From contig NC_009664.2 in assembly GCF_000017305.1 (NCBI RefSeq), positions 1 through 32,000 on the forward strand: a DNA stretch of 32,000 nt, given 5' to 3'. Both the position numbers and the translations under genes were made by a program. Of this stretch, positions 9,206 through 28,802 are shown piece by piece (positions within the stretch are counted from its first letter, which is position 1; every line of letters begins with the position of its first letter). This stretch comes from Kineococcus radiotolerans SRS30216 = ATCC BAA-149. Its GTDB lineage: Bacteria > Actinomycetota > Actinomycetes > Actinomycetales > Kineococcaceae. The notes below the pieces were generated by a model. It saw nothing but the letters and a program-made list of their open reading frames with translations, made no database searches and was not told the DNA's origin.

Positions 9206-9242
9206 CAGGGACCCAGGGACCCAGGGACCCAGGGACCCAGGG
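9206..9242. repeat. octamer tandem repeat (CAGGGACC)x4.6
   Basis: Read directly from the sequence, 90 nt after stop 9115. Confidence 0.9.
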
Positions 9243-9417
9243 TTGACCTTGCCCGACGTCGTCGACTCCTTCGCGCAGCCGCAGCCGCGGCGCAGCGACG
9301 ACGAGGCGAGCCGCGCCCGTCGGAGAGTGCGGCAGCAGATGAACGTGGGTGAGTTCCGGTGGGGGGTTCGTCGCGGCCGTCCGCGACTGAGCCCGGCGCT
9401 CACCGCAACTGAACCGG

Positions 9418-9437
9418 CCCAGCCCAGCCCAGCCCAG
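9418..9437. repeat. pentamer tandem repeat (CCCAG)x4
   Basis: Read directly from the sequence, 40 nt upstream of ATG 9477. Confidence 0.9.
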
Positions 9438-9476
9438 CCTCATACGGTGCCGGCAGCGACGAGCGAGGAGACCAGC

Positions 9477-9911: not shown

Positions 9912-9930
9912 GGAGGAGGCGTCCTGGGCG

Positions 9931-9980
9931 CTGCAGGGCGCCGCCGGGGGCTGCCGGGGGCTGCCGGGGGCTGCAGGGCT
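9931..9980. repeat. 10-bp tandem repeat x5 (CTGCCGGGGG and variants)
   Basis: Takes up most of the 68-bp gap between convergent stops 9911 and 9980. Confidence 0.9.
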
Positions 9981-10615: not shown

Positions 10616-10717
10616 CGCTCGTGCAGCAGGACGGGCCGGTCGTGGAGGCAGGCGCGGATGCGGGCGTGGGCGTAGGTGTCCTGATGGTGCGCTGCGACGT
10701 CACAGGCCGCGGAGCGC

Positions 10718-11656: not shown

Positions 11657-11773
11657 GGCGCGAGTGTGGCAGAAAATCGACCGACAGTGTAGGTCTCCTC
11701 TGAGCCGACGGTGCAAGTCATCGCTGCCGACCGTCGCGCGCGGCGCACTGCGCCCTACTCACACCCGCTGAAC

Positions 11774-11856
11774 CCGAGCGGGCCTCACCGGCGGGACCGA
11801 GCGGGCCTCACCGGCGGGACCGAGTGGTCCTCACCGGCGGGACCGAGCGGGCTTCA
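11774..11856. repeat. 23-bp tandem repeat x3.6
   Basis: Units CCGAGCGGGCCTCACCGGCGGGA, in the divergent spacer between the MmyB-like gene and the MDR gene. Confidence 0.9.
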
Positions 11857-11961
11857 AAGTGGGCCAGCTCGGCCCAGGATGAGCGCGCCGCAGCCTGCCA
11901 CCTTGGGTCACGTCCCCACGACGAGCACGACGACAGCACACCCACGAGAGCAGGTTCGGTC

Positions 11962-12957
11962 ATGAAGGCGGTGCGCTTCCACGACTTCGGTGGTCCCGAG
12001 GTCCTGCGCCACGAGGACGTCGAGCCGCCCGTCCCCGGCGTGGGGCAGGTGCGGATCCGCGTCGCCGCCACGTCCTTCAACGGCCTCGACGTCACCCTGC
12101 GGGCCGGCGACCTGCGCGACAGGTCACCGCTCCGGCTGCCGCACACCCCCGGTCTCGACGTCGCCGGTACCGTCGACGCCCTCGGTCCCGGCGTGGACGA
12201 GATCAGCATCGGCGACCGGGTGGTCGGCCTCCTGCCGATGACGGCGCCCGGGGCGGCAGCGCAGCACGTGCTCGCCCCGGCGCAGGTCCTGGCGGGGGTG
12301 CCCCGCAGGCTTCCGCTGACGGATCTGGCGGCTCTGCCGCTGGTGGGCCTGACCGCCTGGCAAGCACTGTTCGACCACGGCGGCCTCATGGCCGGGCAGC
12401 GAGTGCTGATCAACGGGGTCGGCGGAGCGGTCGGCGGGTACGCCGTGCAGTTGGCCGTGGAGACCGGTGCACAGGTGCTCGTCACGGCCCGCCCCAGCAG
12501 CACCGTCCGGGTCAAGGCCGCGGGCAGCGACGAGGGCACCGTCCACACGCTGGACCACGCGCTGGACCACGCGCTGGACCACACGCTGGACCCCGCGCTC
12601 GTCGACGTCGCACACGCGGTGGTCGAACCCGTCGACCTCGTCCTGAACCTCGCGCCGACCGGTGCGAAACAGCTGGCCGCGATGGTTCCGCTGATCCGCG
12701 ACGGCGGCAGGCTCGTGAGCACCACCGCGTGGATACCCACCCCCTGCGACGAGGAGCGGGGTGTGCAGGGCGTGAACCTGTCCGTACGCAGCGACGCCGA
12801 CCAGCTCGCCGACCTCGTCGCCCGCGTGAGCACCGGCGAGCTACTCGTCAACGTCGCTGAGCGGGTGGCGCTGGCCGACCTACCCGCCCTGCACGCCCGG
12901 GCCCACGCCGGCGAGCTGCCGCCGGGCAAGGTCGTCGTCCTCATCCCCCCGGCCTAG
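11962..12957 (+). CDS. MDR-superfamily NADPH:quinone oxidoreductase-like protein (paralog of 8183..9115)
   Basis: Trimmed to ATG 11962 (MKAVRFHDFGGPEVL...). PGLDVAGTVDALG and INGVGGAVGGYA. Collinear with the 8183 gene apart from a repeat-encoded insert. Confidence 0.85.
   Translation: MKAVRFHDFGGPEVLRHEDVEPPVPGVGQVRIRVAATSFNGLDVTLRAGDLRDRSPLRLPHTPGLDVAGTVDALGPGVDEISIGDRVVGLLPMTAPGAAAQHVLAPAQVLAGVPRRLPLTDLAALPLVGLTAWQALFDHGGLMAGQRVLINGVGGAVGGYAVQLAVETGAQVLVTARPSSTVRVKAAGSDEGTVHTLDHALDHALDHTLDPALVDVAHAVVEPVDLVLNLAPTGAKQLAAMVPLIRDGGRLVSTTAWIPTPCDEERGVQGVNLSVRSDADQLADLVARVSTGELLVNVAERVALADLPALHARAHAGELPPGKVVVLIPPA
12544..12591 (+). repeat. in-frame 12-bp tandem repeat x4 encoding (H-A/T-L-D)4
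   Basis: CAC(A/G)CGCTGGAC x4, in frame with the CDS. The paralog lacks this insert. Confidence 0.9.
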
Positions 12958-12967
12958 CACCCACCAT

Positions 12968-13018
12968 TCCACCCCACCCACCGCTCCACCCCACCCACCA
13001 CTCCACCCCACCCACCGC
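12968..13018. repeat. 17-bp tandem repeat x3
   Basis: TCCACCCCACCCACC(G/A)C x3, between stop 12957 and ATG 13036. Confidence 0.9.
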
Positions 13019-13035
13019 TTCACCCAGGAGGACCC

Positions 13036-13986
13036 ATGTCCAACCAGCAGCTCATCACTGTCATCGGTGCCACCGGGACCCAGGGCGGCGCGGTTGCGCG
13101 TGCCCTGCAGGCCGATGGCACCTTCGCCGTCCGCGCCGTCACCCGTGATGCCACCTCCGCCCGAGCGCAGGCCCTCGCCGACCTCGGCATCGAGGTGGTC
13201 GAGGCGGAGCTCAGCGACGAGGACAGTCTGCGGAAGGCGTTCGACGGCGCGCACGGCGCGTTCCTGGTCACCCCGTTCTGGGAACACCGCTCCCCTGAAC
13301 GGGAACTGACCGAGGTGCGTACCCTCATCGCCGCCGCCCGCGGCGCCCAGCTGCAGCGCGTGGTGTGGTCCACGCTGGAGGACACCCGCCAGGCCATCGC
13401 CGCCGACGACCAGCGCATGCCCGTCATCCGCGACGGCCGCGGCGAGGAGTACCGGGTGCCGCACTTCGACGTCAAGGGCGGTGAGGCCGACGCGCTCTTC
13501 GCCGCCTCCGGGCTACCGGTGACCTACCTGCTGATGTCCTTCTACTGGGACCAGCTGCTCGGCGACCTTGCCCCCCAGCGCGACGAGGACGGAACCCTCG
13601 CGCTGCACCTGCCCGTGGGGGACGCCCCCGTGGCCGGCATCGCCTCCGACGACATCGGCCGCGTCGTGCTGCGGGTGCTGCAGGACCCCTCCACCATCGG
13701 CGCCACCGTCCCCGCCGTCAGCGATGTCCTCACCGGCGAGCAGATGGCCGCCGCGTTCAGCGCGGTGCTCGGCGAGCAGGTGGCCTACCGACCGCTGACC
13801 CCGGCGCAGTTCCGCGCTTTCCCCGTCCCCGGCGCCGAGGAACTGGGGAACATGTTCCAGTACTACGCCGAGTTCCCTGAGTCCTACAACGGGCGCCGCG
13901 ACCTGGCCACCGCGCACGCGCTCAACCCCGAACACCTGAACTTGACCGGTTTCCTCACCGCCCACCGGGCCCGACTCACCCGCTGA
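13036..13986 (+). CDS. NmrA-family NAD(P)-binding protein
   Basis: AGGAGG lies 4 nt before the ATG. ITVIGATGTQGGAVARAL Rossmann motif and NmrA-like layout. 316 aa. Confidence 0.85.
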   Translation: MSNQQLITVIGATGTQGGAVARALQADGTFAVRAVTRDATSARAQALADLGIEVVEAELSDEDSLRKAFDGAHGAFLVTPFWEHRSPERELTEVRTLIAAARGAQLQRVVWSTLEDTRQAIAADDQRMPVIRDGRGEEYRVPHFDVKGGEADALFAASGLPVTYLLMSFYWDQLLGDLAPQRDEDGTLALHLPVGDAPVAGIASDDIGRVVLRVLQDPSTIGATVPAVSDVLTGEQMAAAFSAVLGEQVAYRPLTPAQFRAFPVPGAEELGNMFQYYAEFPESYNGRRDLATAHALNPEHLNLTGFLTAHRARLTR

Positions 13987-14009
13987 GAGCTGCACGCGTC
14001 GACCGGCAA

Positions 14010-14056
14010 CCTGAGTCAGCCGCCTGAGTCAGCCGCCTGAGTCAGCCGCCTGAGCC
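14010..14056. repeat. 13-bp tandem repeat x3.6 (CCTGAGTCAGCCG)
   Basis: Each unit contains the near-palindrome TGAGTCA. Located 24 nt after stop 13986. Confidence 0.9.
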
Positions 14057-14145
14057 CCAGCTTGACCGTCCCGGCCCCGGCCGTCCCGACCTCGACGCAA
14101 CCGTCTCGCCCCTCACCCTGCCCGTCTCGACTTCAGGAGCTCCGG

Positions 14146-15516
14146 ATGTCCACGATGCTCGACCACGACGCGTCCGCGTCGCCGCGCCTGCTCGTCGCGG
14201 CCGACTCGCAGGCTTACACCGCCGCGACGCAGCCCCACAACTCCTCCGTGCAGCAGCGGCCCGTTCGCGTTGCCGCCGCCTCCCACCCGCAGGACCTCGC
14301 GGTCGCGCTGGCCGAGGTCGCCGCGCTCGAGCGCTCCCTCGGCAGGTCCCTCGAGGTCGTGCCGCAGGCCACCGGTCACGGCGCCGGAGCGCCGGTGGGG
14401 AACTCGGCGGTGCTCCTGGACACCTCCCAGCTCACCGACGTCGTCATCGACCCTGAGGCCCGCATCGCCGTGGTCGGCGCCGGGGCGACCTGGGCCGCGG
14501 TCAACGCCGCCGCTGAGCGGCACGGCCTGCTCGGGCTCGCCGGCTCCGCACCCACCGTCTCGGTGTCCGGGTACACCTTCGGCGGCGGCATCGGCTGGCT
14601 AGTCCGGCGCGATGGCCTGGCCAGCGGAGCGCTGCGCGCCGTCCACTACGTCGACGGCGCAGGCCGCTCCCGCACCGCGGCCGACGATGCCACCGACCCC
14701 ATCGACCGCGACGCCATCTGGGCCTTCCGCGGCGCCGGCGGGGTCGGTATCGCCCACACCCTGGAAATCGACCTCGTGCCAGCAGCGCACCTGCACGCCG
14801 GGGCCCTGCTGTGGCACGCCGACGCGCTGCCCGACCTCGTCTCGGCGTGGTCGCACGCCCTCCCAACGCTGGCCACCAGCGCCTCGTCCAGCATCGGCGT
14901 GCTCCACGTGCCACCGCTGCCCCTCTTCCCCCAGACACTGCACGGGAAGGTCACCGTGCACCTGGCCATCGCCGACCCCGACGGCCCCGATGCGGCGGCC
15001 CCGCTGCTGGAGGCGATGCGGGCGGTGGCACCGCCCGTGCTCGACACCTGGGGCCCGACCGACGCGGCAGGACTCGCACGCATCCACCTCGACCCCCCGA
15101 CGGCGACTCCTGCCGTCGGCGACGCGCGGTGGCTGGACGCCTCGACCCCTGACATCGCCGCGGCACTGCTGGCCACCGCCGCCGATGATGACGCGGGCGT
15201 GGTGATGATGGAGATCCGCCACGTAGCCGGCGCCCCGACGCGGCGCCCGGGTGCGGTCACCACAGCGCCGGGCGACTTCATCTACCACGCGGTCGCACCG
15301 CTGAACCTCATCCCCCGCGAGCGCATCGAGGCAGCGTTCGCCCGAGCACGCGCGGTGTGGTCGAGCGCCGACGCCGGCACGACACCGGGCTCGTGGCTCG
15401 AGGGCGCAGCGAACGTGCCGGATGCGCTGACGCCGGGTGTCCGGACGCGGGCGGCCGCAGCCGCTGCCGCCGTCGACCCCGACACCCGCATCCGCCGCTC
15501 ACGCCTGCTCGGCTGA
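14146..15516 (+). CDS. FAD-binding (PCMH-type, FAD_binding_4) oxidoreductase
   Basis: Trimmed to ATG 14146, with AGGAG 6 nt upstream. VVPQATGHGAG and GAGATWAAVNAAAERHGL...GSAPTVSVSGYTFGGGIGWL are typical of FAD-linked oxidases. Confidence 0.8.
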   Translation: MSTMLDHDASASPRLLVAADSQAYTAATQPHNSSVQQRPVRVAAASHPQDLAVALAEVAALERSLGRSLEVVPQATGHGAGAPVGNSAVLLDTSQLTDVVIDPEARIAVVGAGATWAAVNAAAERHGLLGLAGSAPTVSVSGYTFGGGIGWLVRRDGLASGALRAVHYVDGAGRSRTAADDATDPIDRDAIWAFRGAGGVGIAHTLEIDLVPAAHLHAGALLWHADALPDLVSAWSHALPTLATSASSSIGVLHVPPLPLFPQTLHGKVTVHLAIADPDGPDAAAPLLEAMRAVAPPVLDTWGPTDAAGLARIHLDPPTATPAVGDARWLDASTPDIAAALLATAADDDAGVVMMEIRHVAGAPTRRPGAVTTAPGDFIYHAVAPLNLIPRERIEAAFARARAVWSSADAGTTPGSWLEGAANVPDALTPGVRTRAAAAAAAVDPDTRIRRSRLLG

Positions 15517-15582
15517 CGCCTTCTCGAGAGCACCCCGACGAACAACCGGGGCGGGGAGCCGTTGTGCCCAGCGGTCTCCGAC

Positions 15583-15632
15583 CCGGCACCACCGGCCGGC
15601 ACCATCGGCCGGCACCATCGGCCGGCATCGCC
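15583..15632. repeat. 13-bp tandem repeat x3.8 (CCGGCACCATCGG)
   Basis: Lies in the 300-bp gap between convergent stops 15516 and 15819. Confidence 0.9.
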
Positions 15633-15818
15633 ACAGCGCGACGCCGACGCAGTAGCACCCCCAGGAAGATTCACCGCGTTCACGCCTGGTGATCTGCAGG
15701 GCAGCCTCGTGCTCCACCCGTTCACACCTGCAGGGGGCAGGGCGGCGTCGGTGAGCGCGGGAGCACCTGTGCCCTCGCTGCTGCGCGTCGTCGATGATGC
15801 CCGCGGTGTGCGGAGGGA

Positions 15819-16829
15819 TTACTTGCTCTGGATGCCGAAGGCGCCGGAGCTGGCGGCGGCCTGCTGCTGCAGGTCCTGCCAGGCGGTGGCATCGCCGCTG
15901 AGGACGTCGAGGAGGTAGGCGGCGACGGCGTCGGCGACGAGGGCGACGCGGGCGGGGTCCTCGTCGCTGGTTTCCTTCACGGCTTCACCGGCGAGGCCGC
16001 CGAGGGTGTGCTCGCCGTCGGTGATGGTCAGCAGCCGCTTGGGGGCGGGGCTGAAGGTGTAGGCGTCGCTGAACCAGTCCGGCCCGCGGGTGGACATCGC
16101 CGACTGGTCCTTGCCGCCGGCGATGACCAGAGCCGGGGTGGCCATGGTGGAGTAGCCCGGACGCATGAACGGCAGGTGCTCGAGCGCGAACGGGGTGAGG
16201 GTGTCACCGGTCCCGGTGGTGGCGATGAGGACGCCCGCCTTCACCGAGGGGTGGGTGAAGTCCTCACCCGGGGTGCCGTCGGCGTCCAGGACCCGAGCCC
16301 CGAGCAGCGCGCCGGCGCTCTGCCCGCCCCAGGAGTGCCCCACGACGGCGATCCGGCCCGCGTCGACGCGCTCGGGCAGGCCGGGGACCTGGTCGACGAT
16401 GTCGTCGAGGTGGTCCAGGACGGCGTGCAGGTCAGCGATGCGGACCCGCCAGATGGTGGCGAAGCGGGGGTCGTCGAAGCCGATGCGGCGGCGGCGGGAG
16501 TCCAGGTGGGTGGGCTGGATGACGACGAAGCCGGCGGCAGCCCACCGGTCCACGAGGGGTTCGTAGCCGTCCATGGACCAGGCGTTGCCGTGGGAGAAGA
16601 CGATGACGGGCAGGTTCGCCCCCTCGAGCGGGGCGGTGACCTTCACCTGCAGGTCGAGACCACGCTCGATGTCACCCTCGATGCCGCCGCTGACGTTGCG
16701 AGCAGGGCTGGAACCGGTGCTGGGATCGATGGCCGGATCGGTGGCGGGACTGGTGGTGGGGACGGTGATGGGTTTGACCGCGATCAGCCGGCGGTTCAGG
16801 GCCTGAGGTACGGAAGCAAGGAGAGGCAC
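15819..16829 (-). CDS. alpha/beta hydrolase (chlorophyllase / PAF-acetylhydrolase / dienelactone-hydrolase-like)
   Basis: Trimmed to GTG 16829, with AAGGA 6 nt upstream. VIVFSHGNAW and a VVGHSWGGQSA nucleophile elbow. Confidence 0.8.
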   Translation of the reverse strand: MPLLASVPQALNRRLIAVKPITVPTTSPATDPAIDPSTGSSPARNVSGGIEGDIERGLDLQVKVTAPLEGANLPVIVFSHGNAWSMDGYEPLVDRWAAAGFVVIQPTHLDSRRRRIGFDDPRFATIWRVRIADLHAVLDHLDDIVDQVPGLPERVDAGRIAVVGHSWGGQSAGALLGARVLDADGTPGEDFTHPSVKAGVLIATTGTGDTLTPFALEHLPFMRPGYSTMATPALVIAGGKDQSAMSTRGPDWFSDAYTFSPAPKRLLTITDGEHTLGGLAGEAVKETSDEDPARVALVADAVAAYLLDVLSGDATAWQDLQQQAAASSGAFGIQSK

Positions 16830-17939: not shown

Positions 17940-18507
17940 CCATCGGCCGCCTTCGAGGTGCTCACGTAGAACGACCTGGCCACGGCCATCCTGGGAAACC
18001 TGAGCGCGGCGACCCCTGCTGAGCGCAACCTCGCCCGCCGCGCCTTCCTGCCCGAGGTGGCCCACCGAACCGACGCGGAGGTCGCCCACCGAACCGACGC
18101 GGAGGTCGCCCACCGAACCGGCGCGGAGGTCACCGACATGATCGAGTTCCGTCACCCCATCATCGCTGGATCCAGCACCGCGACGGTCCGCTACCCCGCT
18201 ACCCCACTGACCCGCCGATTTACTGACCCCCCGATCCAGGACCTCGTCACCGAACTGCGGGCAGACAGCACAGACTTCGCCCGTCTCCGGCAGCGTCACC
18301 ACGCGCAGGCGCAGCCCGTGATCACCAAGACGTCCCGGCATCCGGGGGTGGCCTCGATCACCGTGGACTGCGACACGCCGCTGCTCCCCGACCATGACAG
18401 ACCGTGACCAGCAGCTGGTCCTCTACACCGCCGTCCCCGGCTCCCGCGACACCGATTCCCTCGAACTACCGCGCACGGTCATCGCGAAGTCGCTGAACGC
18501 CAGCTGA
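17940..18507 (+). pseudogene. MmyB-like regulator pseudogene (ligand-binding domain only)
   Basis: PSAAFEVLT*NDLATAILGNLSAATPAERNLARRAFL...DLVTELRADSTDFARLRQRHH...ITVDCDTPLLPDHDR, then after a +1 shift DQQLVLYTAVPGS...*. There is no HTH, an in-frame TAG at 17967, a repeat insert, and a frameshift near 18405. Confidence 0.6.
18054..18137. repeat. 24-bp tandem repeat x3.5
   Basis: GAGGTCGCCCACCGAACCGACGCG units encoding (EVAHRTDA)n within the pseudogene. Confidence 0.9.
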
Positions 18508-18633
18508 TCCACGCCCTTCTGCACAAGCACAGGTCCGCCCCGGCTCCAGTTGACTCTGACCTCGCCACACCGCAGTCCCTGCACCCCACCCTGCTGAGTT
18601 TCACACAATGAGTAAGCAGCACCCCACAGCAAC

Positions 18634-19341
18634 GGTGAGCGCTTCGCCACCGGAGTCCCCGGTGAGCTGCAGCTGTCCACCGGGCGGCTGCGTTACGTCA
18701 ACGCCGGGCACCCCGCCCCGCTGATGATGCGCGAGGGCAAGGTCGTCAAGGAGCTCGAAGGCGGCCGACGCATCATGCTCGGACTCGGTGACGGCCGGAG
18801 CGCCATCGCCGAGGAGTGGCTGCAGCCCGGTGACCGCATCGTCTTCTACACCGACGGCATCACCGAGGCACGCGACCGCGACGGGGACTTCTTCGGCCTA
18901 GACCGCCTCGTGGACCACCTGCACAGAGCCGCGACAGCGCAGCTGCCCGCACCGGAGACCCTGCGCCGCATCGCCCACGACGTCCTGGACCGTCAAGGCG
19001 GCGTCCTGCAGGACGACGCCACATTGCTCATCGCCGAGTGGGCCACCACACGCGAACGCGCCCTCGTGTCCGCAGACGACATCGCCGCGCACGAACTGTC
19101 CCCCACCCACCGCGACCGCGAGGACACCCCCCCGCCGCTGACCACGGCCCAGGTGCGCCTAGGCCGGACGTCGCGACCACCGCTGCGGACACGAAGGCGC
19201 ACACCAGCCAGGATGGACACCAGTCAGGCAGACACAGGGGCCGATCCCGCAGGCCCGTCTTCTCCTACCCCGTCGAGGCGACGCGGATGGCGCGGATGGC
19301 GCGGATGGCGCTTGGCAGCATCGAGGGCGCCGTGGTTCTAG
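18634..19341 (+). pseudogene. truncated 3' copy of the PP2C/SpoIIE phosphatase gene
   Basis: Positions 18634-19068 align without gaps to 28299-28733 of the intact gene (GERFATG...YTDGITEARD...LLIAEWA). The frame opens just after a TAA around 18610, so the N-terminal two thirds are missing. The tail (19069-19341) is unrelated Arg/Pro-rich sequence. Confidence 0.7.
19282..19308. repeat. 9-bp tandem repeat x3 (CGCGGATGG)
   Basis: Read directly from the sequence, 30 nt beyond the stop of the minus-strand NTF2-like gene. Confidence 0.9.
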
Positions 19342-20105: not shown

Positions 20106-22034
20106 TCAGGCTGCCCACTGGGCGGTGAGGGCTTCGGCGGGTTGAGGGTGCCCGCAGTGGAAGCCCTGCAGGTAGTGGCAGCCGGCGTCGGTGACCTGAC
20201 TGGCTTGCGCAGCGGTTTCCACGCCTTCGGCGATGACCTGCAGGTCCAGGCTGGTGGCCACCGTGACCACCGCGTCCACCAGGGCCCGCCGGCGCGGGTC
20301 GTGCCCGAGACCGGCGATGAAGCTGCGGTCGATCTTGGCCATCTGCACCGGCAGCTCCACCAGACGCGACAAGGAGGAGTAACCGGTGCCGAAGTCGTCG
20401 ATGGACAGCGGGTGCCCGCGATGTTCCTGCTCCTGCAGGACAGGCAGGACCTCGGGGTTGCTGAAGCTGTCCTCGACCACTTCCAGACCCAACTGCTGCG
20501 CATGCAGGTCATGAGTGCGCAGCGCGGTGGCCAAGGTGGTGGTCAGGGCCGGGTCGACGAGTTCGCGGGCGCTGAGATTGACGTAGGCGCTGTACGGCGC
20601 CCCCCGCCGCAGCTCGCGGCGCCACCGGCTCATCTGGGCGCAGGTCTCATCGATGACCCACCTCCCGATCTCCACGATCAACCCGGTATCCACCGCCAGG
20701 TCGACGAACCGCGCGGCGGGCAGCAACCCGCGCTGAGGGTGCTGCCAGCGCAGCAGGGCCTCCACCGCGTGCACGCCACCACCAGGCTCGGTGATGGGCT
20801 GGTAGTGCACCTGCAGCTGATCGTGGGTCAGGGCCTGGGCGAGCTGACGTTCGAGGTGACGCCCCGGACGCTGGGCACTTCGAGCAGCGACACCAGCGCT
20901 GCCACCAGCGCCGCCGCCAGCGCTGCCCCTGCTCACCTCGGTCAGACCGATCACGCCGCCGCGGCCGTGCTGCTCATCGCGTATGCCCTGCTTCACCCGG
21001 CTGTCCCGCTTCGCGCGGTACATCGCCTCATCGGCCGCGGCCAGCAGGTCATCGGCGCTGGGGTGCTCCTCGCTGAGCGCCACCCCGATAGTGGCCCCGA
21101 CCATCAGGTCCACGCCGGCGACGTGGACAGGACGGGCCAGGGCTCGGCGCAGACGAGACGTGACGGCGTGCACGTGCCGGTCAACCTCGCCCCCATCGCC
21201 CGGGCCGCCCGAGCTGGCTCGGGGAAGGTCCTCGCACAGCAGGACGAACTCGTCCCCGGCGAGCCGGGCCAAGGTGTCCTCCTGACGCAGGGAGGCGTTC
21301 ATGCGGGTGGCCACCGTCGCCAACACGGTGTCCCCGGCGGCGTGGCCGAGGGTGTCGTTGACGGCCTTGAAGCGGTCGAGGTCGATGAAGAAGACCGCGA
21401 CGGTGCGCTGGTGGCGCCGCGCGGCGTGCAGGGCGTGCTCGAGCCGGTCGAAGAGCAGAGTCCGGTTGGGTAGCCCGGTCAGGCCGTCGTGGGTGCCGGC
21501 ATGAGCCAGTTCCTGCTGAGCCTGCAGCGCCTGGGCGCGATCAGCGGCCATCACCAGGTAGGACACCGCCACGTGCGCCAGCAGGTGCGCCCACTGCAGT
21601 TCCTGCTGGCCCCAGGTGCCGGCCTCGCGGCGGTAGAGGTCCAGCACCCCCCACACCCGCCCGCGGCTGATCAGCGGTACCGCGATCACCGAGCGGAACC
21701 CCTCCTCCAGGACCCGCTGCACGAACTCCGGCCACGCCGTCTGGACCGGGTCGTGCAGGTCGTCGACGACGACGTCGACGTGGAAGAGCAGCGCGTCGTG
21801 GCAGGGCCCTTCTTGCATCAGCTGCTGCAGCTTCTCCGCCGAGCCCACGTCGGCGCGGTCGGCGTGGACGAAACGCAGCAGTTCCCCGTCGTTGATCATG
21901 ACGCCGGCGCCGTCGACGTCCAGGTGCTCGGTGGTGATGTCCACCAGGTGCTTGAGGAGGTCCTCGGGGTCGGCCTGCCCGCTGGCCGCGGTCGCCAGCT
22001 CCGCCAGCGCGCCGGTCATCGCCTCGGTGTTCAC
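20106..22034 (-). CDS. GAF-GGDEF-EAL c-di-GMP turnover protein
   Basis: N-terminal GAF (GPCHDA..., AVPLISRGRVWGVLDLY). GGDEF domain (GLTGLPNR, DLDRFKAVNDTLGHAAGD, RLAGDEFVLL). EAL domain (HAVEALLRW, NLSAREL, DDFGTGYSSL, KIDRSF, AEGVET, QGF). Start at GTG 22034 or ATG 22019. Confidence 0.9.
   Translation of the reverse strand: MNTEAMTGALAELATAASGQADPEDLLKHLVDITTEHLDVDGAGVMINDGELLRFVHADRADVGSAEKLQQLMQEGPCHDALLFHVDVVVDDLHDPVQTAWPEFVQRVLEEGFRSVIAVPLISRGRVWGVLDLYRREAGTWGQQELQWAHLLAHVAVSYLVMAADRAQALQAQQELAHAGTHDGLTGLPNRTLLFDRLEHALHAARRHQRTVAVFFIDLDRFKAVNDTLGHAAGDTVLATVATRMNASLRQEDTLARLAGDEFVLLCEDLPRASSGGPGDGGEVDRHVHAVTSRLRRALARPVHVAGVDLMVGATIGVALSEEHPSADDLLAAADEAMYRAKRDSRVKQGIRDEQHGRGGVIGLTEVSRGSAGGGAGGSAGVAARSAQRPGRHLERQLAQALTHDQLQVHYQPITEPGGGVHAVEALLRWQHPQRGLLPAARFVDLAVDTGLIVEIGRWVIDETCAQMSRWRRELRRGAPYSAYVNLSARELVDPALTTTLATALRTHDLHAQQLGLEVVEDSFSNPEVLPVLQEQEHRGHPLSIDDFGTGYSSLSRLVELPVQMAKIDRSFIAGLGHDPRRRALVDAVVTVATSLDLQVIAEGVETAAQASQVTDAGCHYLQGFHCGHPQPAEALTAQWAA
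20891..20926 (-). repeat. in-frame 12-bp tandem repeat x3 in the GGDEF-EAL linker
   Basis: CACCAGCGCTGC, CACCAGCGCCGC, CGCCAGCGCTGC, encoding SAGGGAGGSAGV on the minus strand. Confidence 0.85.
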
Positions 22035-22048
22035 TGCGCCGCCGCCGG

Positions 22049-22084
22049 CCTCAACGACTGCCTGAACAAGTGCCTGAACACCTG
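22049..22084. repeat. 12-bp tandem repeat x3 (CCTGAACAAGTG-like)
   Basis: CCTCAACGACTG, CCTGAACAAGTG, CCTGAACACCTG, immediately upstream of the GGDEF-EAL start. Confidence 0.8.
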
Positions 22085-22530
22085 CCCGAGCCGCCGCGTC
22101 GCGCGAGGTGGCTGCCCTGAGGGGGCATACAGCGGTGACGACTGTTCACCAAACTGGCTGCAGGAGCGCAAAGGTTGAGATTTCATCGGTCCACTGCCCT
22201 CGCTCGCACGGAGGCCGGTGTTAGACCCTGGGGTACAGAATACGCCGCTCGTGATCACTTGCTCGCTACGGTCGTGTCGGATCGGAGGCAACCGTTGGAA
22301 AGTCGACAAAACCGGCGGTCCTGAACTTGCGCGACGCAGCGGGCTGGAACCCGGCAGCGTTTCGCCAGCTGAAGCCCATTCCGTCGTGCCCGGGCCACGC
22401 GCCCCGGCCCGGTCGCGATGGGGTTACGTCAGCTGCGGGTCTTGTCCTCAGCACTACTTGGAATGTACTGCCGCGGGCCTCAGCACCCAGGACCCGTCTG
22501 ATCGACACCGGTCGAGGAAGAGGCGATGTT

Positions 22531-22911
22531 TCAGGGTGGCGGTGCCAGCAGCGCCATCTCGCACCACACCTGCACAACATGGGGCTCTCGCCTCCACCCC
22601 CACTGCTGGCTCAACGCGGAAAGCAGCAGCTCGGACTCCGCACCGACCTCGAAAGGGCCGTCCCCGGCGAGATCGACGACGACGGTCAGCCCATCCAGGT
22701 CTTCTCGGACCGACACCGCTTTCGCCCAATGCTGCGGAGCGCCCACGGCGAAAAGCTCCCCAGCGGCTTGCACCAACTCCTCGGTGCGGTCCTCGCCGAC
22801 CCCGGCCTGCTCAGCGTAGACGGACAGGAAGCGGCGTGCCTGCGCCAACTCCTGCGCTCCGCCTGCCAGGTCAAGGCGGATCCGATCCCCGGCATACGTG
22901 TGGGAATTCAT
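22531..22911 (-). CDS. RsbW/SpoIIAB-like (HATPase_c_2-type) anti-sigma/kinase homolog with degenerate ATP-binding motifs
   Basis: Trimmed to ATG 22911 (MNSHTYAGDRIRLDL...), with GGAGGAGG 8 nt upstream. The ATG overlaps the STAS stop (ATGA). The layout (L.L......L...R.F....AEQAG...D....L..A..EL, ...VVVDLAGDGPF, ...LLSALSQQWGW......VWCEM) resembles short RsbW-type proteins, but ELFAVGAPQH sits where the N-box Asn is expected. Confidence 0.55.
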   Translation of the reverse strand: MNSHTYAGDRIRLDLAGGAQELAQARRFLSVYAEQAGVGEDRTEELVQAAGELFAVGAPQHWAKAVSVREDLDGLTVVVDLAGDGPFEVGAESELLLSALSQQWGWRREPHVVQVWCEMALLAPPP

Positions 22912-23348
22912 GCGCCCCCCTCCTCCGCCCACGCCCGCGAGACGCGGAAGTCGAGAACCGCGGGGAGGGCGAAAAGCTCCACCAGAGCCATCAGGTGCGG
23001 TTGAAGGCCGCACACCTGCAAGGAGTTGCCAACGCCTTCGGCGCGTTGCGACAAGGCCACCAGCAGGCCCAAGACCGCGCAGTCCAGGAACGTCACTGCC
23101 GACAGATCCAGGACGACCCGTTCAGCGATGTCGACGACCGGCTCAACCTGTTCGCGAATCCACGCTAAATCGCCCATGTCCAGCTCACCGCACAACGCCA
23201 CCGTGCACGGCTGGGCGGGGCGAGGACTCTGATCAGGGGCAGGAGGACGCGGCTGAGCGGCCGGAGAACGGTGAAGCGCAGAAGCATGATCAGTGGAACA
23301 TCGGGGCTGTTGGCTACGGGAAGCGGTCAGGAGCTGGGTCACGGCCAC
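22908..23348 (-). CDS. STAS-domain protein (anti-sigma-factor antagonist family)
   Basis: CTVALCGELDMGDLAWIREQVEPVVDIAERVVLDLSAVTFLDCAVLGLLVAL...LQVCGLQPHLMALVELFALPAVL matches the SpoIIAA/RsbV pattern. The only in-frame starts upstream of the fold are GTG 23348 and 23342, giving a roughly 50-aa Pro/Gln/Ser-rich extension. No clear SD. Confidence 0.75.
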   Translation of the reverse strand: MAVTQLLTASRSQQPRCSTDHASALHRSPAAQPRPPAPDQSPRPAQPCTVALCGELDMGDLAWIREQVEPVVDIAERVVLDLSAVTFLDCAVLGLLVALSQRAEGVGNSLQVCGLQPHLMALVELFALPAVLDFRVSRAWAEEGGA

Positions 23349-23662
23349 CTCGCGGAAGGAGCAAAGGCCGGGCCTGACTTTGGACCCACCCGAAGGCTAA
23401 GCCCCCTCCTCGGGGGCCGCAAGACGCCTGCCAGGACCCTGTCGCCCTCCAGCCGGGGCAATCTTCACCTTCGGCAATGCCCACCCGCCCCTTGTGCCCC
23501 CCTTGCGGGATGGGCCAAGGTCCATTCCGCACCCGGCGCTTGAGCATTACGTCTGCGGGCGCAGCTGATGAGTCCCGCCTCCGCCGTTGCAGCCCCAGGC
23601 CCAGGTGCTCTTGCTGGCCCGGGATGTTGTGCGATGCGGGCGCCTGGGCTCGCAGGGCTAGG

Positions 23663-24022
23663 TCAGGGGCGTTTGCGGTCCAGGTGCTGCAGCAGGTCGT
23701 CAGCGGCCTGCTCGATCTCGGAGTGGTCGTTCTGCGCGGCGCGCTGCTTAGCGTGGATGAGCGCGGCCCGGTTCACCGTCGAGAAGTCCCCGTAGGGGAA
23801 GTGGTAACGCTTCTTGGTGCGCTCGGAGGCGTCGGGGTCGATGGCCAGGTGCCAGCGGGCGTACTGCTCCCACCCCTCGTCGTCGAGCTCGTCGTTGCCG
23901 TCGGCGGGCGAGGGCGCGGCCTGCGACCAGGCGGTGTCGTCGTCGTAGGTCCCTGCGTCGATCAGCTCGCGGGCCTGGTCGACGGCTTCCTGATTCACGC
24001 GGTAGCTCGGCATGCCGCTCAT
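23663..24022 (-). CDS. small acidic hypothetical protein
   Basis: 119-aa ORF with coding-like composition (MSGMPSYRVNQEAVDQARELIDAGTYDDD...KKRYHFPYGDFSTVNRAALIHAKQRAAQNDHSEI...). I recognise no family. Confidence 0.6.
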   Translation of the reverse strand: MSGMPSYRVNQEAVDQARELIDAGTYDDDTAWSQAAPSPADGNDELDDEGWEQYARWHLAIDPDASERTKKRYHFPYGDFSTVNRAALIHAKQRAAQNDHSEIEQAADDLLQHLDRKRP

Positions 24023-24136
24023 CTACCCGAGCTGCCTGCGCGCCAACCGCGACGTTGCGGTCCAACCCGGCTGAGACGCTTACCAGGCCCCGCCCCGTTG
24101 TGGCCAGCGGCAGCGGCAGCGACTAGGTCGGCGGTC

Positions 24137-26035
24137 TCAGCGCCCGGCGCGGCCTCCAGTGCTCCCCGCCGGGTCCAGGACGATCCGCTGAACGGGCGCG
24201 GCGAGGACCTGCTGCCAGCGCGGGAGCACCGGATCGCGGTGGAAGCGCAACCGCCCCGCCGGTCGCGACCCGCGCCGGCCACCTGCGTGCCAGGCATCCA
24301 GCGCGGCGGCGCTGGCGCGCAGAGCCGCGACGGCGCGGTGGGGGTCGAGGAGGTCGAGGTCCCCCCAGTCGTCCCCCCGGTCGCCTCTGCGGTCGCCTTC
24401 CCAGCCGCTCCCGCGCTCATCCTGCTCGCCCTGCTCACTCTCGAAGCCGCTCCTGCCCAAGTGCTCGCGCATCAGCTGCAGGCGCAGATCTCGAGCGAAG
24501 CGGCGGGCACCGTCGCCCAGCCCGGCCGGGTCAGCAGGCTCGCGCTGATCGTGGGCCTCGTCCAAGACGGCAACCGACAGTTCGGAGTCATGGCTCCAGG
24601 ACCGACGGTTGAGGTTGTCGCTGCGCACGCACGCCCACACGTCGTCGACGATGGTGACCTTGGAGTGGACGTAGACCGCCTCGCCCTGCTCGTTCTCCAC
24701 GTCGAAGACGTGCACACGGTCCCCGCCCGCGGCGCGCAGGACCTCCAACGCCCGCACCTGCCCCAGCAGCAGCGCAGGCGCCGCCAGGCCCCCGCGCTTG
24801 GGGTGACGCGGCACCAGGACGACCAACTGCAACCCGGATGTAGCGCGCAGGGCATCGGCGAAGACGCCGGCCACCTGCCGCGACCACAGGAACTGCTCCT
24901 CCACGTAGACCAGACGCCGGGCCCGGCGCAGCACCTTGACGTGAGCGGCGACGATGCTGGCCTCCCCCTGGGGGGCGAAGGGGTAGCGCGGCCAACGGCG
25001 CGGGTAGGTCCGCAGCAACTGCACCACGCACGAGCCGGGTGTGAGCGCATCGGGTGCGGGGCCCAGCGCGGGACCCCCCGGCGTGGGCTCCCCCGGCGCG
25101 GGCTCCCCCGGCGCGGGCTCCCCCGAGGTGGGCTCCTCTTCAGCTGGGTGAGCAGCCGCGGCCGGCATCGGCTGCGGTGGGGGAAGCGGTACCGGCCGCC
25201 GCACGAGACGGCGCAGCAGGTCCGAGCCGACCTGCCACGGCAGCAGCGACAGCGGCGCACGGTCCTCCCACCGTTCGCGGAAGACGGTCTCGACGTGGTC
25301 CACCGCGGGCCCGCGGACCGCGGTGTGGATGTCGTGCCACGAGGGATGGCGCCCGTACTTGCTCCCGAAGGACATCCGCTGCCGGTCCCCGTGGTGAGCG
25401 GTCCCGTCACGGCGACTGTGGGCGAGGTCGAGGCTGCCGACGAAGGCGACATCGTCCTGGGGACGGTGCAGGTGCCGGATGACGAGGAACTTCTGGTGGT
25501 GACTGCCCAGGGTCCGCACCCGCTGGTCCAGCAGGACCTCCGCGCCCCCCTTCACCTTCTGAGCCAGGTGGCGGTTTCGCTCAGGCACCAGACGCTGCCA
25601 ATCCCACGGTGAGCGCCACACCAGGCCCTTGACCACCGCACCGCGGCGGGCGGCGGCGGTGAGAGCCTCAGCGATCGTGGGCCCGTCGTCGGTGAGCAGC
25701 TCATCGGGATCGCCCTGCCAGTCGGCGAAGAGCACCAGATCACCCTCACCGCTCCCCGCCAGCGCTGCGGCCAGCGCCGAGAAGTAGGCCACCCCGTCGA
25801 CGAGGGGCTGCACCCGGTTCCCCCGGCTCCACGCGGGCAGGCGGGTGGCGCCGTTGCCGCGTTCGGCACCGCTCAGCAGCCAGACGGTCGCAGACCGGTC
25901 ACCGGCACCATCCCCGGCGCCATCCCTGGTGGCCGTCGCGCCCTTGGTAGCAGCGGTGGTGGCGCTAGCAGCGGCGGTGGCGCTAGCAGCGGTGGTGGCG
26001 GCGGTACTGAAGGTGGCGTCCTGGTGGTGGCTCAT
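24137..26035 (-). CDS. phospholipase D-like protein with two HKD motifs
   Basis: Track ORF 24137..26632 trimmed to ATG 26035 (MSHHQDATFS...), which overlaps the stop of the upstream kinase gene (ATGA). First motif GSHHQKFLVIRH...VAFVGSLDL. Second motif YVHSKVTIVDDVWACVRSDNLNRRS. The N-terminal GNRVQPLVDGVAYFSAL...ADWQGDPDELL resembles long PLD enzymes. Confidence 0.85.
   Translation of the reverse strand: MSHHQDATFSTAATTAASATAAASATTAATKGATATRDGAGDGAGDRSATVWLLSGAERGNGATRLPAWSRGNRVQPLVDGVAYFSALAAALAGSGEGDLVLFADWQGDPDELLTDDGPTIAEALTAAARRGAVVKGLVWRSPWDWQRLVPERNRHLAQKVKGGAEVLLDQRVRTLGSHHQKFLVIRHLHRPQDDVAFVGSLDLAHSRRDGTAHHGDRQRMSFGSKYGRHPSWHDIHTAVRGPAVDHVETVFRERWEDRAPLSLLPWQVGSDLLRRLVRRPVPLPPPQPMPAAAAHPAEEEPTSGEPAPGEPAPGEPTPGGPALGPAPDALTPGSCVVQLLRTYPRRWPRYPFAPQGEASIVAAHVKVLRRARRLVYVEEQFLWSRQVAGVFADALRATSGLQLVVLVPRHPKRGGLAAPALLLGQVRALEVLRAAGGDRVHVFDVENEQGEAVYVHSKVTIVDDVWACVRSDNLNRRSWSHDSELSVAVLDEAHDQREPADPAGLGDGARRFARDLRLQLMREHLGRSGFESEQGEQDERGSGWEGDRRGDRGDDWGDLDLLDPHRAVAALRASAAALDAWHAGGRRGSRPAGRLRFHRDPVLPRWQQVLAAPVQRIVLDPAGSTGGRAGR
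25066..25140 (-). repeat. in-frame 15-bp tandem repeat x5 in the PLD gene
   Basis: GCGCGGGCTCCCCCG-type units encoding SGEPA/PGEPA/PGEPT/PGGPA. Confidence 0.9.
25950..26003 (-). repeat. in-frame 18-bp tandem repeat x3 at the PLD N-terminus
   Basis: GCAGCGGTGGTGGCGCTA-type units encoding AATTAAS/ATAAAS/ATTAAT. Confidence 0.9.
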
Positions 26036-27003
26036 CGGATGACGCTCACCGCGGCGGGCGCGCAGGAGACGACGACCTCCACACCGGTCTCGACCTGGTG
26101 GACCTCCCCGTCCATCTGCACCGGCATCGGCGTGGCGGTGGTGAAGGCGTACGGCTCCTCGCGGGAGATGACCTCGTGCGTGCCGCGCACCAGACGCAGG
26201 ACGCTGGCCAGCAGCTTCAGCTTGCTGCGGTGGCGAATCAGCAGCGTCTCGTAGGTGCCGTCGGTGGGTGAGGATTCCTGCGACAAGGTGGCGTACTTGG
26301 CCATCCGGTCGATGTTGGCGAACACCAGGCTGTCCAGCTGAATGCGGTGGCCGTCGTGGGTAATGGTGAACGGGCGGTAGCGCCAGACACTGCGCAGCGC
26401 CAGCAGGCTCTCCTTCACCGCGTCCAGGTCGTGCTGGTTGAACTCCACCGCAACCACGGGGGTGATGCCCAACCCGACGTAGGAGTGCGCGTAGCGCGGC
26501 TCCTGACCGTCGATGAGCACCTCCAGCAGGTCCATCTGCGACACCGTCCCCGCCACGATCGCCTCCACCAGGGGCCGCTCCTGCACCGCCGTGGCGTGGT
26601 CGTTGGCGTTGCCCGAGGCCAGCACCGCGCACACCCCGGCACCGGGGACCCGGCGCCGGGCGCGCATGACACCGTTGACGACCTCGTGGTAGCCGCCGTC
26701 ACCGCTGGCGGAGACCACCAACGTGGCCGGGTGCTCGCTGACGGCCCGCTCAGCGAGTTCCACCGCATGCCCGGCGTGCTGGGTCTGGGCCAGCTGCACC
26801 ACCGTGGCGGGAAGACGCTGGGCGAGCTGAGCGCGCAACTGCTCGCCGTTGCCTGGACCGTCACCGGTGCTGTGGGGGTTGTAGATGACCACCACGCGAT
26901 CGAAGTGCCCGGTTACCGCCTGGATCGCTGCTCGAGTCGCTGCCTGGATCACTGCTGGAACCTCCGATGGGGTGTCGGCGGACACTCCACCATTCGCCGA
27001 CAT
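26032..27003 (-). CDS. diacylglycerol-kinase-family (DAGK_cat, YegS/BmrU-like) lipid kinase
   Basis: RVVVIYNPHSTGDG, VVSASGDGGYHEVVNG (GGDGT-type motif) and LASGNANDHA (GTGNDFA-type motif). Start uncertain: ATG 27003 is preferred and GTG 27099 is possible. Confidence 0.8.
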   Translation of the reverse strand: MSANGGVSADTPSEVPAVIQAATRAAIQAVTGHFDRVVVIYNPHSTGDGPGNGEQLRAQLAQRLPATVVQLAQTQHAGHAVELAERAVSEHPATLVVSASGDGGYHEVVNGVMRARRRVPGAGVCAVLASGNANDHATAVQERPLVEAIVAGTVSQMDLLEVLIDGQEPRYAHSYVGLGITPVVAVEFNQHDLDAVKESLLALRSVWRYRPFTITHDGHRIQLDSLVFANIDRMAKYATLSQESSPTDGTYETLLIRHRSKLKLLASVLRLVRGTHEVISREEPYAFTTATPMPVQMDGEVHQVETGVEVVVSCAPAAVSVIR

Positions 27004-27530
27004 TGCCACGCAGCGCGCACGGCAGCCACCTGGGGCGGGCTGCGCACTCTGACCTTCCAGCTCTCGGACTTCAGGCTCCAGCGCAGCACACGGACCCACT
27101 GGAGCGAGGCGACGGGACTGCTCGGCAGTGATGGATGTGGCTGCACTGTTCAGACGAGCCCTCTTGCGCTCAGGCCGCTACCCGCGCGCAGCCGTCGCAG
27201 CGCCGCACACGGCGCCGGTCGCAACGCCGTGCACGACGTCGATGACGTCGGCCCCGCTCAGCCACGCCTCGGTCGCACCCCACGGAGCCCTCCGGCGATC
27301 ACCTTCCCTGCGCGCAGCCTGCCTGCCTCTCCCCGTCAGCACGTCAGCGCCGGTGGATCCGGTTGCGTTCAGGGGCGGGGCCGCCGGTAGCGGCATGACG
27401 GCGACGGCGCGAAGGGCCCTGCAACAGCTCGGGCCTGGTTGTCGGGAAGGAGGCCGTCGGGGATGGGGCGGGTGGCTACGCGCGATGTCACCGAGCCGGT
27501 GACACGGAGGAGGCGTTAGCGTCTCGGAGC

Positions 27531-28802
27531 ATGAGCGCTGGTGCGTCCGAGCGGACACTGGTCATGGTGCGCACCCTGATGGACCGTGCCCACCTGGCCA
27601 CCACCGGGCAGATCCCCGACGCCACCCTGGAGGCCGCCCGCACGCTGGGCTGGACGGCCCAGCTCTACCTCACCGACCACGAGCAGCGCCTGCTGCTGCC
27701 GCTGCCCACCACCGGCCTGGCACCGCGGCGCCCGCAACTCATCGCCACCACCGTGGCCGGGCGCTGCTTCCGCGGCATGCGACCGCTGACTGTCCCCAAC
27801 GACAGCACCCGCGTCTGGCTGCCCGTCTTCGACGGCGCCGACCGCCTGGGTGTCCTCGAACTCACCGTCCCCGAGGGCGGGGACCTCGACGACGAGGTGT
27901 TCGCCGAGCGCTGCCGGCTGCTGGCCCACCTGAGCGGGCACCTGATCGCGGCGAAGAGCCCCTATGGCGACGCGCTGGACCGCATCCGGCGCCGGCGACC
28001 GCGCACGGTGGCCTCCGAACTGCTGCACCAGGTCCTGCCGCCGCTGACTTTCGCGTGTGAGGGACTGGTCGTCTCCTGTCTGCTGCAACCGGCGTACGAC
28101 GTGGCCGCGGACGCCTTCGACTACAGCGTCGTCGACGAGACCGCGCACCTGGCCGTGCTGGACGCCACCGGTCACGACGTGCACGGCACGATCCTGGCGG
28201 CGCTGGCGCTCTCGGCCTACCGCAACAGCCGCCGCAACGGCCACGGCCTCGGCGAGGCGGTACGTGCCGTGGACGCGGTGATCGCCGAGCACGGCGGCGG
28301 TGAGCGCTTCGCCACCGGTGTCCTGGGTGAGCTCGACCTCGGTACGGGTCGGCTGCGCTACCTCAACGCCGGGCACCCCGCTCCCCTGCTGCTGCGCGAG
28401 GGCAAGGTCGTCAAGGAGCTCGAGGGCGGACGGCGCATCCTCCTCGGTCTGGGTGAGGGGCAGGTCGACCTCGCCGAGGAGTGGCTGCAGCCTGGGGACC
28501 GGATCCTCTGCTACACCGACGGCATCACCGAGGCGCGCGACCTCGACGGCGCCTTTCTCGGCGTCGAGGGTCTCGTGGAGCATCTGCACAAGGCCGCCGC
28601 CGCGCAGCTCACCGCCCCCGAGACCCTGCGACGCATCAGCCACGACGTCCTGGAGCGCCAAGGCGGCGTCCTGCAGGACGACGCGACCTTGCTCATCGCC
28701 GAGTGGGCCAGCACGCGGGAGCGTGACTTCGTGACGTCCTCCGCCGAGGACGTCGACGGACGAGACTTCACCCCCTCCCGCGCCGGCGGTCTCCGGCGCT
28801 GA
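27531..28802 (+). CDS. PP2C-family (SpoIIE/RsbU-like) serine phosphatase with an N-terminal GAF-like sensor region
   Basis: C-terminal half: VSCLLQPAYDVAADAFDY...AVLDATGHDVHGTILAAL...ERFATGVLGELDL..GRLRYLNAGHPAPLLL...YTDGITEARD...DDATLLIAEW. The N-terminal region of about 170 aa (VWLPVFDGADRLGVLEL) is GAF-like. Confidence 0.85.
   Translation: MSAGASERTLVMVRTLMDRAHLATTGQIPDATLEAARTLGWTAQLYLTDHEQRLLLPLPTTGLAPRRPQLIATTVAGRCFRGMRPLTVPNDSTRVWLPVFDGADRLGVLELTVPEGGDLDDEVFAERCRLLAHLSGHLIAAKSPYGDALDRIRRRRPRTVASELLHQVLPPLTFACEGLVVSCLLQPAYDVAADAFDYSVVDETAHLAVLDATGHDVHGTILAALALSAYRNSRRNGHGLGEAVRAVDAVIAEHGGGERFATGVLGELDLGTGRLRYLNAGHPAPLLLREGKVVKELEGGRRILLGLGEGQVDLAEEWLQPGDRILCYTDGITEARDLDGAFLGVEGLVEHLHKAAAAQLTAPETLRRISHDVLERQGGVLQDDATLLIAEWASTRERDFVTSSAEDVDGRDFTPSRAGGLRR

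Follow-up and report, generated by a model that had tools for sequence, protein, structure and literature searches.

The 32-kb window analysed here was matched by exact protein look-ups to the chromosome of the actinobacterium Kineococcus radiotolerans SRS30216, Krad_2194 to Krad_2201. It holds a pair of small minus-strand genes, encoding a STAS protein and a protein with the RsbW/UsfX fold, upstream of a gene for a GAF-GGDEF-EAL enzyme of cyclic di-GMP (c-di-GMP) metabolism. A sequence-only reading of the surrounding 8.7 kb (20106-28802) had taken the pair, together with a PP2C/SpoIIE-type phosphatase, for a partner-switching set without a sigma factor, next to the GGDEF-EAL gene, a lipid kinase, a PLD-superfamily protein and a small acidic orphan, and possibly acting on the GGDEF-EAL enzyme, on the lipid enzymes or on both. 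Because the DNA of the window is about 70% GC, genes were called from third-position GC content (GC3), with annotation from Pfam and NCBIfam; the genes listed in that reading are all present within the 8.7 kb, and no sigma-factor or sigma-70-family domain was found in any coding-like open reading frame of the 32 kb. Actinobacterial RsbW and STAS paralogues that lack a linked sigma-factor gene are not unusual. The 8.7 kb comprise four separate units, whose co-occurrence is limited to K. radiotolerans and strains nearly identical to it: the PP2C gene followed by a GNAT gene, an operon for the lipid kinase (DAGK) and the PLD protein in which the orphan is possibly included, the STAS/RsbW-fold bicistron, and the GAF-AGDEF-EAL gene.

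The STAS protein (presumably Krad_2198, by position; 22908-23348, minus strand, with a core at 22908-23210) matches the Pfam families STAS_2 (E 7.8e-14) and STAS (E 6.4e-11), and phmmer aligns it to the SpoIIAA chains 1th8 and 1tid at about 1e-7. In this alignment, with which an alignment of canonical STAS proteins agrees, the segment 'FLDCAVLG' faces 'FMDSSGLG' of SpoIIAA. The first Ser of the SpoIIAA segment marks the phospho-site column, since 1tid carries a Ser-to-Ala mutation there, and the K. radiotolerans protein has Cys90 in this position and hence no Ser or Thr at the canonical site. To judge from the sequence, that site is closed to phosphorylation in the STAS protein. Further cysteines occur at positions 113, 53 and 48; the predicted structure, from a three-sequence alignment, was of unusable quality (predicted local distance difference test, pLDDT, 44). 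The true start of the gene is uncertain, gene callers giving products of 146, 145, 101 or 89 aa. The first 46 codons (23211-23348) are proline-rich and non-coding-like, with a GC3 of 0.54 against 0.80 in the domain core, and their divergence in two related metagenome contigs (L013 and L015) is more rapid than that of the neighbouring intergenic DNA.

The partner protein, Krad_2199 (126 aa; 22531-22911, minus strand), can be assigned with confidence to the RsbW/UsfX/SpoIIAB fold, as a prediction at fold level and not by sequence thresholds. Its match to the Pfam family HATPase_c_2 spans 35 residues only and, at 19.5 bits, stays below the cutoff of 27.4, the match to NCBIfam RsbA_anti_sig is weak (E 5e-5), searches of PDB sequences with phmmer and with a family profile found nothing relevant, and hhalign gave no significant alignment to a SpoIIAB sequence. 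The fold call is considered correct because the AlphaFold2 model, built from a nine-sequence alignment, is confident (pLDDT 85.9, predicted template-modelling score 0.81) and because its best Foldseek matches in the PDB, at E 4e-6 to 1e-3 and template-modelling scores of 0.6-0.7, are Mycobacterium tuberculosis UsfX, Bacillus subtilis RsbW and SpoIIAB. The UsfX structures matched are complexes with SigF or RsfB (8jzt, 8ih8), and SiaB-SiaC (6kko) is among the weaker fold matches. The description 'RsbW-like' in the sequence-only reading thus stands for the fold, but extends neither to sequence thresholds nor to kinase motifs.

These motifs were aligned with those of three canonical Kineococcus HATPase_c_2 proteins and of SpoIIAB. 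Where the canonical proteins have N-boxes such as 'SELVTNAV' and 'SEAVTNAI', Krad_2199 has 'GELFAVGA', in which the Glu is kept and the Mg-ATP-binding Asn is replaced by Val (by Ala or Gly in other family members). The His that follows is also lost, the sole Asn of the protein is residue 2, and a 10-residue deletion falls at the G2/ATP-lid position, where the canonical proteins carry a G2 box of the 'GGRGVQLL' type. Because both the N-box Asn and the G2 segment are missing, the protein is predicted to be a pseudokinase without Mg-ATP binding of the GHKL type, and for the same reason the RefSeq name of the product, 'ATP-binding protein' (WP_041291792), is doubtful. The family is small: a word-indexed search of 5.8 billion sequences returned two matches, and HMMER, run exhaustively on 1.84 billion representative proteins, returned eight members, one of which, a repetitive 438-aa protein, looks spurious, while the remainder come from metagenomic or Logan contigs, apart from one protein of K. 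indalonis.

The two genes are joined by an ATGA overlap, read directly in the sequence as the earlier reading had stated, and a strong ribosome-binding site, GGAGGAGGGGGG, precedes the RsbW-like gene. The bicistron with its 4-nt overlap is kept in L013 and L015 (about 95% identity), and in a further contig (L017) a STAS C-terminus stops 5 nt upstream of an RsbW-like homologue of 39% identity. The ratio of non-synonymous to synonymous substitution rates (dN/dS) of the RsbW-like gene is 0.17-0.69, and therefore this is not a dead gene. Taken over the pair as a whole, the substitution patterns point to weak to moderate constraint. Since acceptor residue and kinase are both missing, the sequences indicate that the pair cannot run a canonical phosphorylation cycle.

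In a near-identical strain (contig L014), one G fewer is read near position 5540, equivalent to about 22915 in the window, before the STAS stop codon; the resulting frameshift gives a 41-nt overlap of the STAS and RsbW-like genes and is probably a homopolymer assembly error. One metagenome project, PRJEB13142, accounts for most of the homologues of the RsbW-like and STAS proteins (L013, L015, L016, L017 and L018) and appears to hold several K. radiotolerans-like populations with protein identities of 40-95%.

The gene downstream of the pair, Krad_2200 (20106-22034, minus strand), encodes a protein with EAL (E 3e-66), GGDEF (E 6e-42) and GAF (E 8e-15) domains in Pfam. Its family is well populated, with about 7,300 homologues and with orthologues of 60-80% identity across Kineococcus. 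Among 42 family members the Ala of the EAL motif is kept in 41 and the RxxD I-site is conserved as well, while the first residue of the A-site is Ala in 27, Ser in 13 and Gly in two. Krad_2200 itself keeps the EAL motif intact and the RxxD I-site, but its A-site is AGDEF, which makes its cyclase activity uncertain; general knowledge of these domains suggests that it is probably in the main a phosphodiesterase, whose GGDEF domain would be regulatory or weakly active.

A possible link between STAS proteins and this enzyme family recurs in part outside K. radiotolerans. Four contexts of GGDEF-EAL orthologues from outside the species were examined (L019, L020, L021 and L102). In one of these, from Kineococcus sp. 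NBC_00420 (L021), a gene for a 115-aa STAS protein (7657-8004) overlaps by 4 nt the start, at 8001, of a GAF-GGDEF-EAL orthologue of 62% identity, and the phospho-site segment of this STAS protein reads 'FVDC', that is, Cys again. In two homologues of the enzyme (P0116 and P0125, 47-48% identity) a STAS domain is fused to the N-terminus, and its phospho-site residue is Val or Trp. As a rough background control, 80 loci around unrelated GGDEF-EAL genes (31-41% identity), picked from metagenomes by generic EAL-motif patterns, were scanned with a custom STAS hidden Markov model, and none contained a STAS gene.

Two GAF/PAS-SpoIIE phosphatases, one canonical HATPase_c_2 protein and another GGDEF-EAL protein are encoded within 8 kb at the NBC_00420 locus as well. 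Its cluster at 3616-16187 comprises genes for GAF-PAS-GAF-SpoIIE, GAF-ANTAR, the STAS protein coupled to GAF-GGDEF-EAL, the second GGDEF-EAL protein, a fatty-acid desaturase, HATPase_c_2 and PAS-GAF-SpoIIE. A related contig (L102, from JGI) keeps most of this gene order and lacks the STAS and HATPase_c_2 genes.

From the observed gene content, motifs, fold and synteny pattern, the explanation we tentatively prefer, without rating it as probable, is that a STAS/pseudokinase pair working by binding only modulates the downstream GAF-AGDEF-EAL enzyme, with the PP2C and the lipid operon as bystanders. The pair would descend from a partner-switching pair and have lost the use of phosphorylation; a Cys at the phospho-site and the predicted loss of GHKL-type Mg-ATP binding would limit it to reversible protein-protein binding, like the kinase-negative mycobacterial UsfX/RsbW1-RsfA, with no need of the neighbouring PP2C. 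Its likeliest target would be the c-di-GMP enzyme, which the free STAS protein may bind and modulate, the pseudokinase holding or releasing the STAS protein and Cys90 serving as a possible signal-sensitive residue. Here each step of binding is inferred, as are the direction in which regulation runs and a redox input, if there is one. The translational coupling, the conservation of the pair, the dN/dS of the RsbW-like gene, the Cys at the phospho-site, the RsbW/UsfX fold without its kinase motifs, the partly recurrent STAS-enzyme link with its empty background control, and the precedents from mycobacteria and Pseudomonas speak for such a mechanism, and of the outputs named in the sequence-only reading it is the GGDEF-EAL enzyme that keeps some standing, in this weaker form.

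Several observations weigh against this explanation. The STAS gene is absent from three of the four orthologue contexts (K. terrestris, L019; Kineococcus sp. SYSU DK002, L020; and the JGI contig L102), and within the window a non-coding gap of 496 nt (22035-22530; GC 0.60-0.70, no coding-like frame in a GC3 scan) parts the RsbW-like stop codon from the start of the GGDEF-EAL gene. In K. indalonis, the homologue of the RsbW-like protein (P0011, WP_166611972; longest contig 5,877 nt) does not appear to share a contig with the GGDEF-EAL orthologue (P0043; longest contig 6,541 nt). Genes of c-di-GMP metabolism are dense in Kineococcus, with six in 188 kb of loci centred on PLD genes, so that a c-di-GMP gene would be an immediate neighbour by chance in about a few percent of cases. 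Upstream of the RsbW-like homologue of 59% identity in L016, no recognisable end of a STAS gene was found. Finally, the dN/dS of the STAS gene, from few substitutions, is 0.6-0.8, which on these small counts suggests relaxed constraint.

The orthologue contexts that lack a STAS gene would suit a module of the UsfX/RsfA type. In such a module the RsbW-fold protein would serve as a kinase-negative anti-sigma factor to a sigma factor of the SigB/SigF type encoded elsewhere, with the Cys-bearing STAS protein as an antagonist that needs no phosphorylation and is possibly redox-sensitive, and with the GGDEF-EAL gene as a mere neighbour. We regard this as possible but somewhat unlikely. The best structural matches of Krad_2199, namely UsfX with SigF or RsfB and then RsbW and SpoIIAB, speak for it, as does the weak match to the RsbA anti-sigma family. 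There is also precedent in mycobacteria, where kinase-negative anti-sigma factors of the RsbW family, an RsbW homologue that acts as an antagonist (RsbW3) and the redox- or disulfide-controlled STAS protein RsfA are established (PMC7693655). The K. radiotolerans pair resembles the mycobacterial SigF switch in having an RsbW-fold protein without (here, predicted) kinase activity, whose top structural match is UsfX itself, and a STAS partner outside the control of Ser phosphorylation (PMC7693655). However, no sigF-type gene is linked to it, sigma-factor genes being absent for 22 kb to one side and for 9 kb to the other, and Krad_2199 differs from UsfX in being shorter, in also lacking the ATP-lid/G2 segment and in having no detectable sequence similarity to it. 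The extreme rarity of the RsbW-like family would moreover be odd for the regulator of a conserved sigma factor, and the adjacency and fusion of STAS domains seen in the GGDEF-EAL family also speak against such a module.

The PP2C gene (Krad_2194, ABS03677; 423 aa; 27531-28802, plus strand) has a clear SpoIIE domain (Pfam E 2e-43, residues 203-392), whereas residues 1-200, described in the sequence-only reading as a sensor domain, matched no known family. It lies on the opposite strand, 4.2 kb from the STAS/RsbW-fold pair, and is divergent from the lipid operon, which stands in between. The PP2C is probably outside the STAS unit; the comparison of its linkage to the pair covered near-identical strains only. 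A pair that lacks both acceptor residue and kinase offers the nearby PP2C no substrate, and the label of a partner-switching set holds loosely, for the types of genes present but not for a canonical PP2C/STAS/RsbW triad.

Between the PP2C gene and the pair, on the minus strand, lie the lipid kinase (Krad_2195; 26032-27099, or 26032-26952 and 306 aa with the GenBank start), the PLD-superfamily protein (Krad_2196; 632 aa; 24137-26035) and the acidic orphan (Krad_2197; 119 aa; 23663-24022). The kinase is of the DAGK_cat/YegS_C type (Pfam DAGK_cat E 7.8e-15) and its match to TIGR00147 in NCBIfam (E 2.7e-12) is under the cutoff; its stop codon overlaps the PLD start as ATGA, again as the earlier reading had it. 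The PLD protein (Pfam PLDc_2 E 1.9e-11, PLDc E 7.3e-5) has an intact second HKD motif, 'HSKVTIVDD...SDNLNRRS', and a first motif, 'HHQKFLVIRH', that is missing the usual Asp. The orphan starts 114 nt downstream of the PLD gene, has a GC3 of 0.93, which is a strong sign of coding, and matched nothing in Pfam, NCBIfam, PADLOC or the PDB; its cluster is confined to K. radiotolerans-like sequences, and the 12 PLD loci of other species do not contain it. An anti-phage defence function of these genes was considered and set aside, there being no PADLOC match.

Relatives of the PLD protein were compared in 12 genomes, 11 of other Kineococcus (62-80% identity) and one of Virgisporangium (48%). At none of the 12 loci is DAGK, the orphan, STAS, the RsbW-like gene, PP2C or this GGDEF-EAL gene adjacent, and what stands upstream of PLD differs from locus to locus (genes for cation efflux, MFS, amidase, histidine kinase and fatty-acid desaturase). 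The DAGK-PLD operon beside the STAS pair recurs only in L014, a Logan contig of about 100% identity; given that no PLD relative has such an adjacency, the operon and its placement beside this pair are specific to K. radiotolerans. The comparison thus lends no support to lipid enzymes as an output of the switch, and synteny of the block as a whole beyond this strain, a test that the sequence-only reading had itself named, is largely not conserved. In Virgisporangium aliadipatigenens (L008, 8373-11569), tandem PLD genes 47-48% identical to that of the window are followed by MFS, TetR and STAS genes; this STAS gene was judged incidental, being of the canonical Ser-bearing kind and separated from PLD by the MFS and TetR genes.

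Orthologues of the lipid kinase in two other Kineococcus (74% and 60% identity; L001, 2230-3906, and L004, 2-4770) lie no more than 3 kb from canonical HATPase_c_2 genes, and that in L004 is also near a PP2C gene. Since these are the only HATPase_c_2 and PP2C genes in the 188 kb of PLD-centred loci, an association of the lipid kinase with partner switches may be real. This observation also speaks for a full phospho-circuit, in which the PP2C would dephosphorylate the STAS protein, the RsbW-like kinase would re-phosphorylate it, and free STAS protein would control both the GGDEF-EAL and the DAGK-PLD enzymes; every type of component is indeed found within 8.7 kb. However, the Cys at the phospho-site, an RsbW-like protein without N-box Asn or G2 box, the distance and opposite strand of the PP2C, and the lack of DAGK-PLD and PLD-STAS adjacency in each of the 11 further Kineococcus genomes compared make such a circuit very improbable, and the single PP2C/STAS/RsbW phospho-switch proposed from the sequence is not supported.

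The region also bears signs of rearrangement. A truncated PP2C paralogue (18616-19341, plus strand), in which only the C-terminal half remains (SpoIIE profile positions 89-191 in Pfam), is 74% identical in protein to the intact PP2C by BLASTP, and in BLASTN the segments 18625-19087 and 28290-28758 share 82% nucleotide identity over 469 nt in direct orientation. Between them, these copies enclose the entire block from a DUF4440 gene to DAGK, an arrangement that points to an old duplication of the segment or to a rearrangement. Adjoining the PP2C fragment is an MmyB-like fragment (17970-18407, plus strand) that covers only positions 82-145 of the ligand-binding domain, has no helix-turn-helix and is probably a pseudogene; an intact MmyB-like gene lies at 10718-11716. 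The truncated PP2C copy and the MmyB-like fragment fit a recently reshuffled region. Repeats near the STAS/RsbW-fold pair were chance-level matches only, and no insertion signature was found there.

Such a setting invites the view that the genes were brought together by chance in a rearranging region, that the pair is a decaying or idle degenerate duplicate and that the neighbourhood has no regulatory meaning. The bracketing PP2C copy and the adjoining gene fragment would be expected under it, and so would the unconserved neighbourhoods of both PLD and GGDEF-EAL, the GC3 of the pair (0.79-0.80, under the 0.86-0.93 of its neighbours), the high dN/dS of the STAS gene, the loss of catalytic and phospho-site residues and a family of about eight members in 1.84 billion representatives. 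But both frames are intact and their coupling is kept in three related sequences (L013, L015 and L017), the RsbW-like gene has a dN/dS of 0.37 against its 59%-identical homologue in L016, indicating purifying selection, its fold is confidently predicted, and the phospho-site Cys recurs in an independent STAS gene that is coupled to an orthologous enzyme. With these points in mind, juxtaposition and decay seem to us unlikely, though not negligibly so.

Elsewhere, the window encodes regulators of the TetR, MarR and MmyB types as well as oxidoreductases, among which zinc-type alcohol dehydrogenase paralogues (8159-9105 and 11938-12941) share 67% nucleotide identity over about 1 kb. Rfam found nothing in the whole window at the gathering threshold, and at E<=1 over 21900-24200 gave no relevant match, the sole match being a chance microRNA at 23916-24011. 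A consensus scan for promoters and terminators found none, the 496-nt gap included, but at 70% GC such an outcome carries no information.

Control of diguanylate cyclases by STAS-type proteins is known from Pseudomonas, in HsbA-HsbD (PMC5085249) and SiaC-SiaD (PMC8457831). In the SiaABCD and HsbR-HsbA-HsbD systems of P. aeruginosa, SiaC or HsbA acts directly on the c-di-GMP enzyme, instead of or besides a sigma factor (PMC8457831, PMC5085249), as would the STAS protein under the binding-only mechanism preferred here. These systems, however, run a phosphorylation cycle through SiaA/SiaB or HsbR, whereas the K. radiotolerans pair lacks both kinase and acceptor site, and their target is an active GGDEF cyclase, whereas the candidate target in K. 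radiotolerans is a GAF-A/SGDEF-EAL protein. With the RsbU/RsbV/RsbW and SpoIIE/SpoIIAA/SpoIIAB modules of Bacillus, the locus shares translationally coupled genes of the STAS and SpoIIAB/RsbW folds and a PP2C gene in the vicinity; it differs from them in the Cys that replaces the phospho-Ser, in the missing N-box Asn and G2 box, in the lack of a sigma-factor gene and in a PP2C that is outside the operon. The literature searched contained no mention of Krad_2194 to Krad_2200.

Partner-switch proteins that act on diguanylate cyclases are already known from Pseudomonas, and kinase-dead RsbW proteins and non-phosphorylatable STAS proteins from mycobacteria. The part possibly worth following is the link of a non-phosphorylatable STAS protein to the GGDEF-EAL family, and not an eight-gene 'circuit'. 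A wider proposal, which we regard as speculative and rather improbable as it stands, is that some Actinobacteria have turned a partner-switching pair into a phosphorylation-free, possibly thiol-sensitive switch, in which a STAS protein held by a pseudokinase would directly control a GAF-A/SGDEF-EAL enzyme, and that the coupled or fused STAS domains of related enzymes follow the same logic. K. radiotolerans is studied for its tolerance of radiation and oxidative stress. If the STAS-enzyme link is not real, the locus would illustrate how readily the dense PP2C, STAS, HATPase_c_2 and GGDEF/EAL paralogue families of Actinobacteria yield circuit-like neighbourhoods by chance. If it is true, partner-switch control of c-di-GMP would extend from Pseudomonas to Actinobacteria, without a cycle of kinase and phosphatase, and the pair would offer a compact system for studying STAS signalling without phosphorylation.

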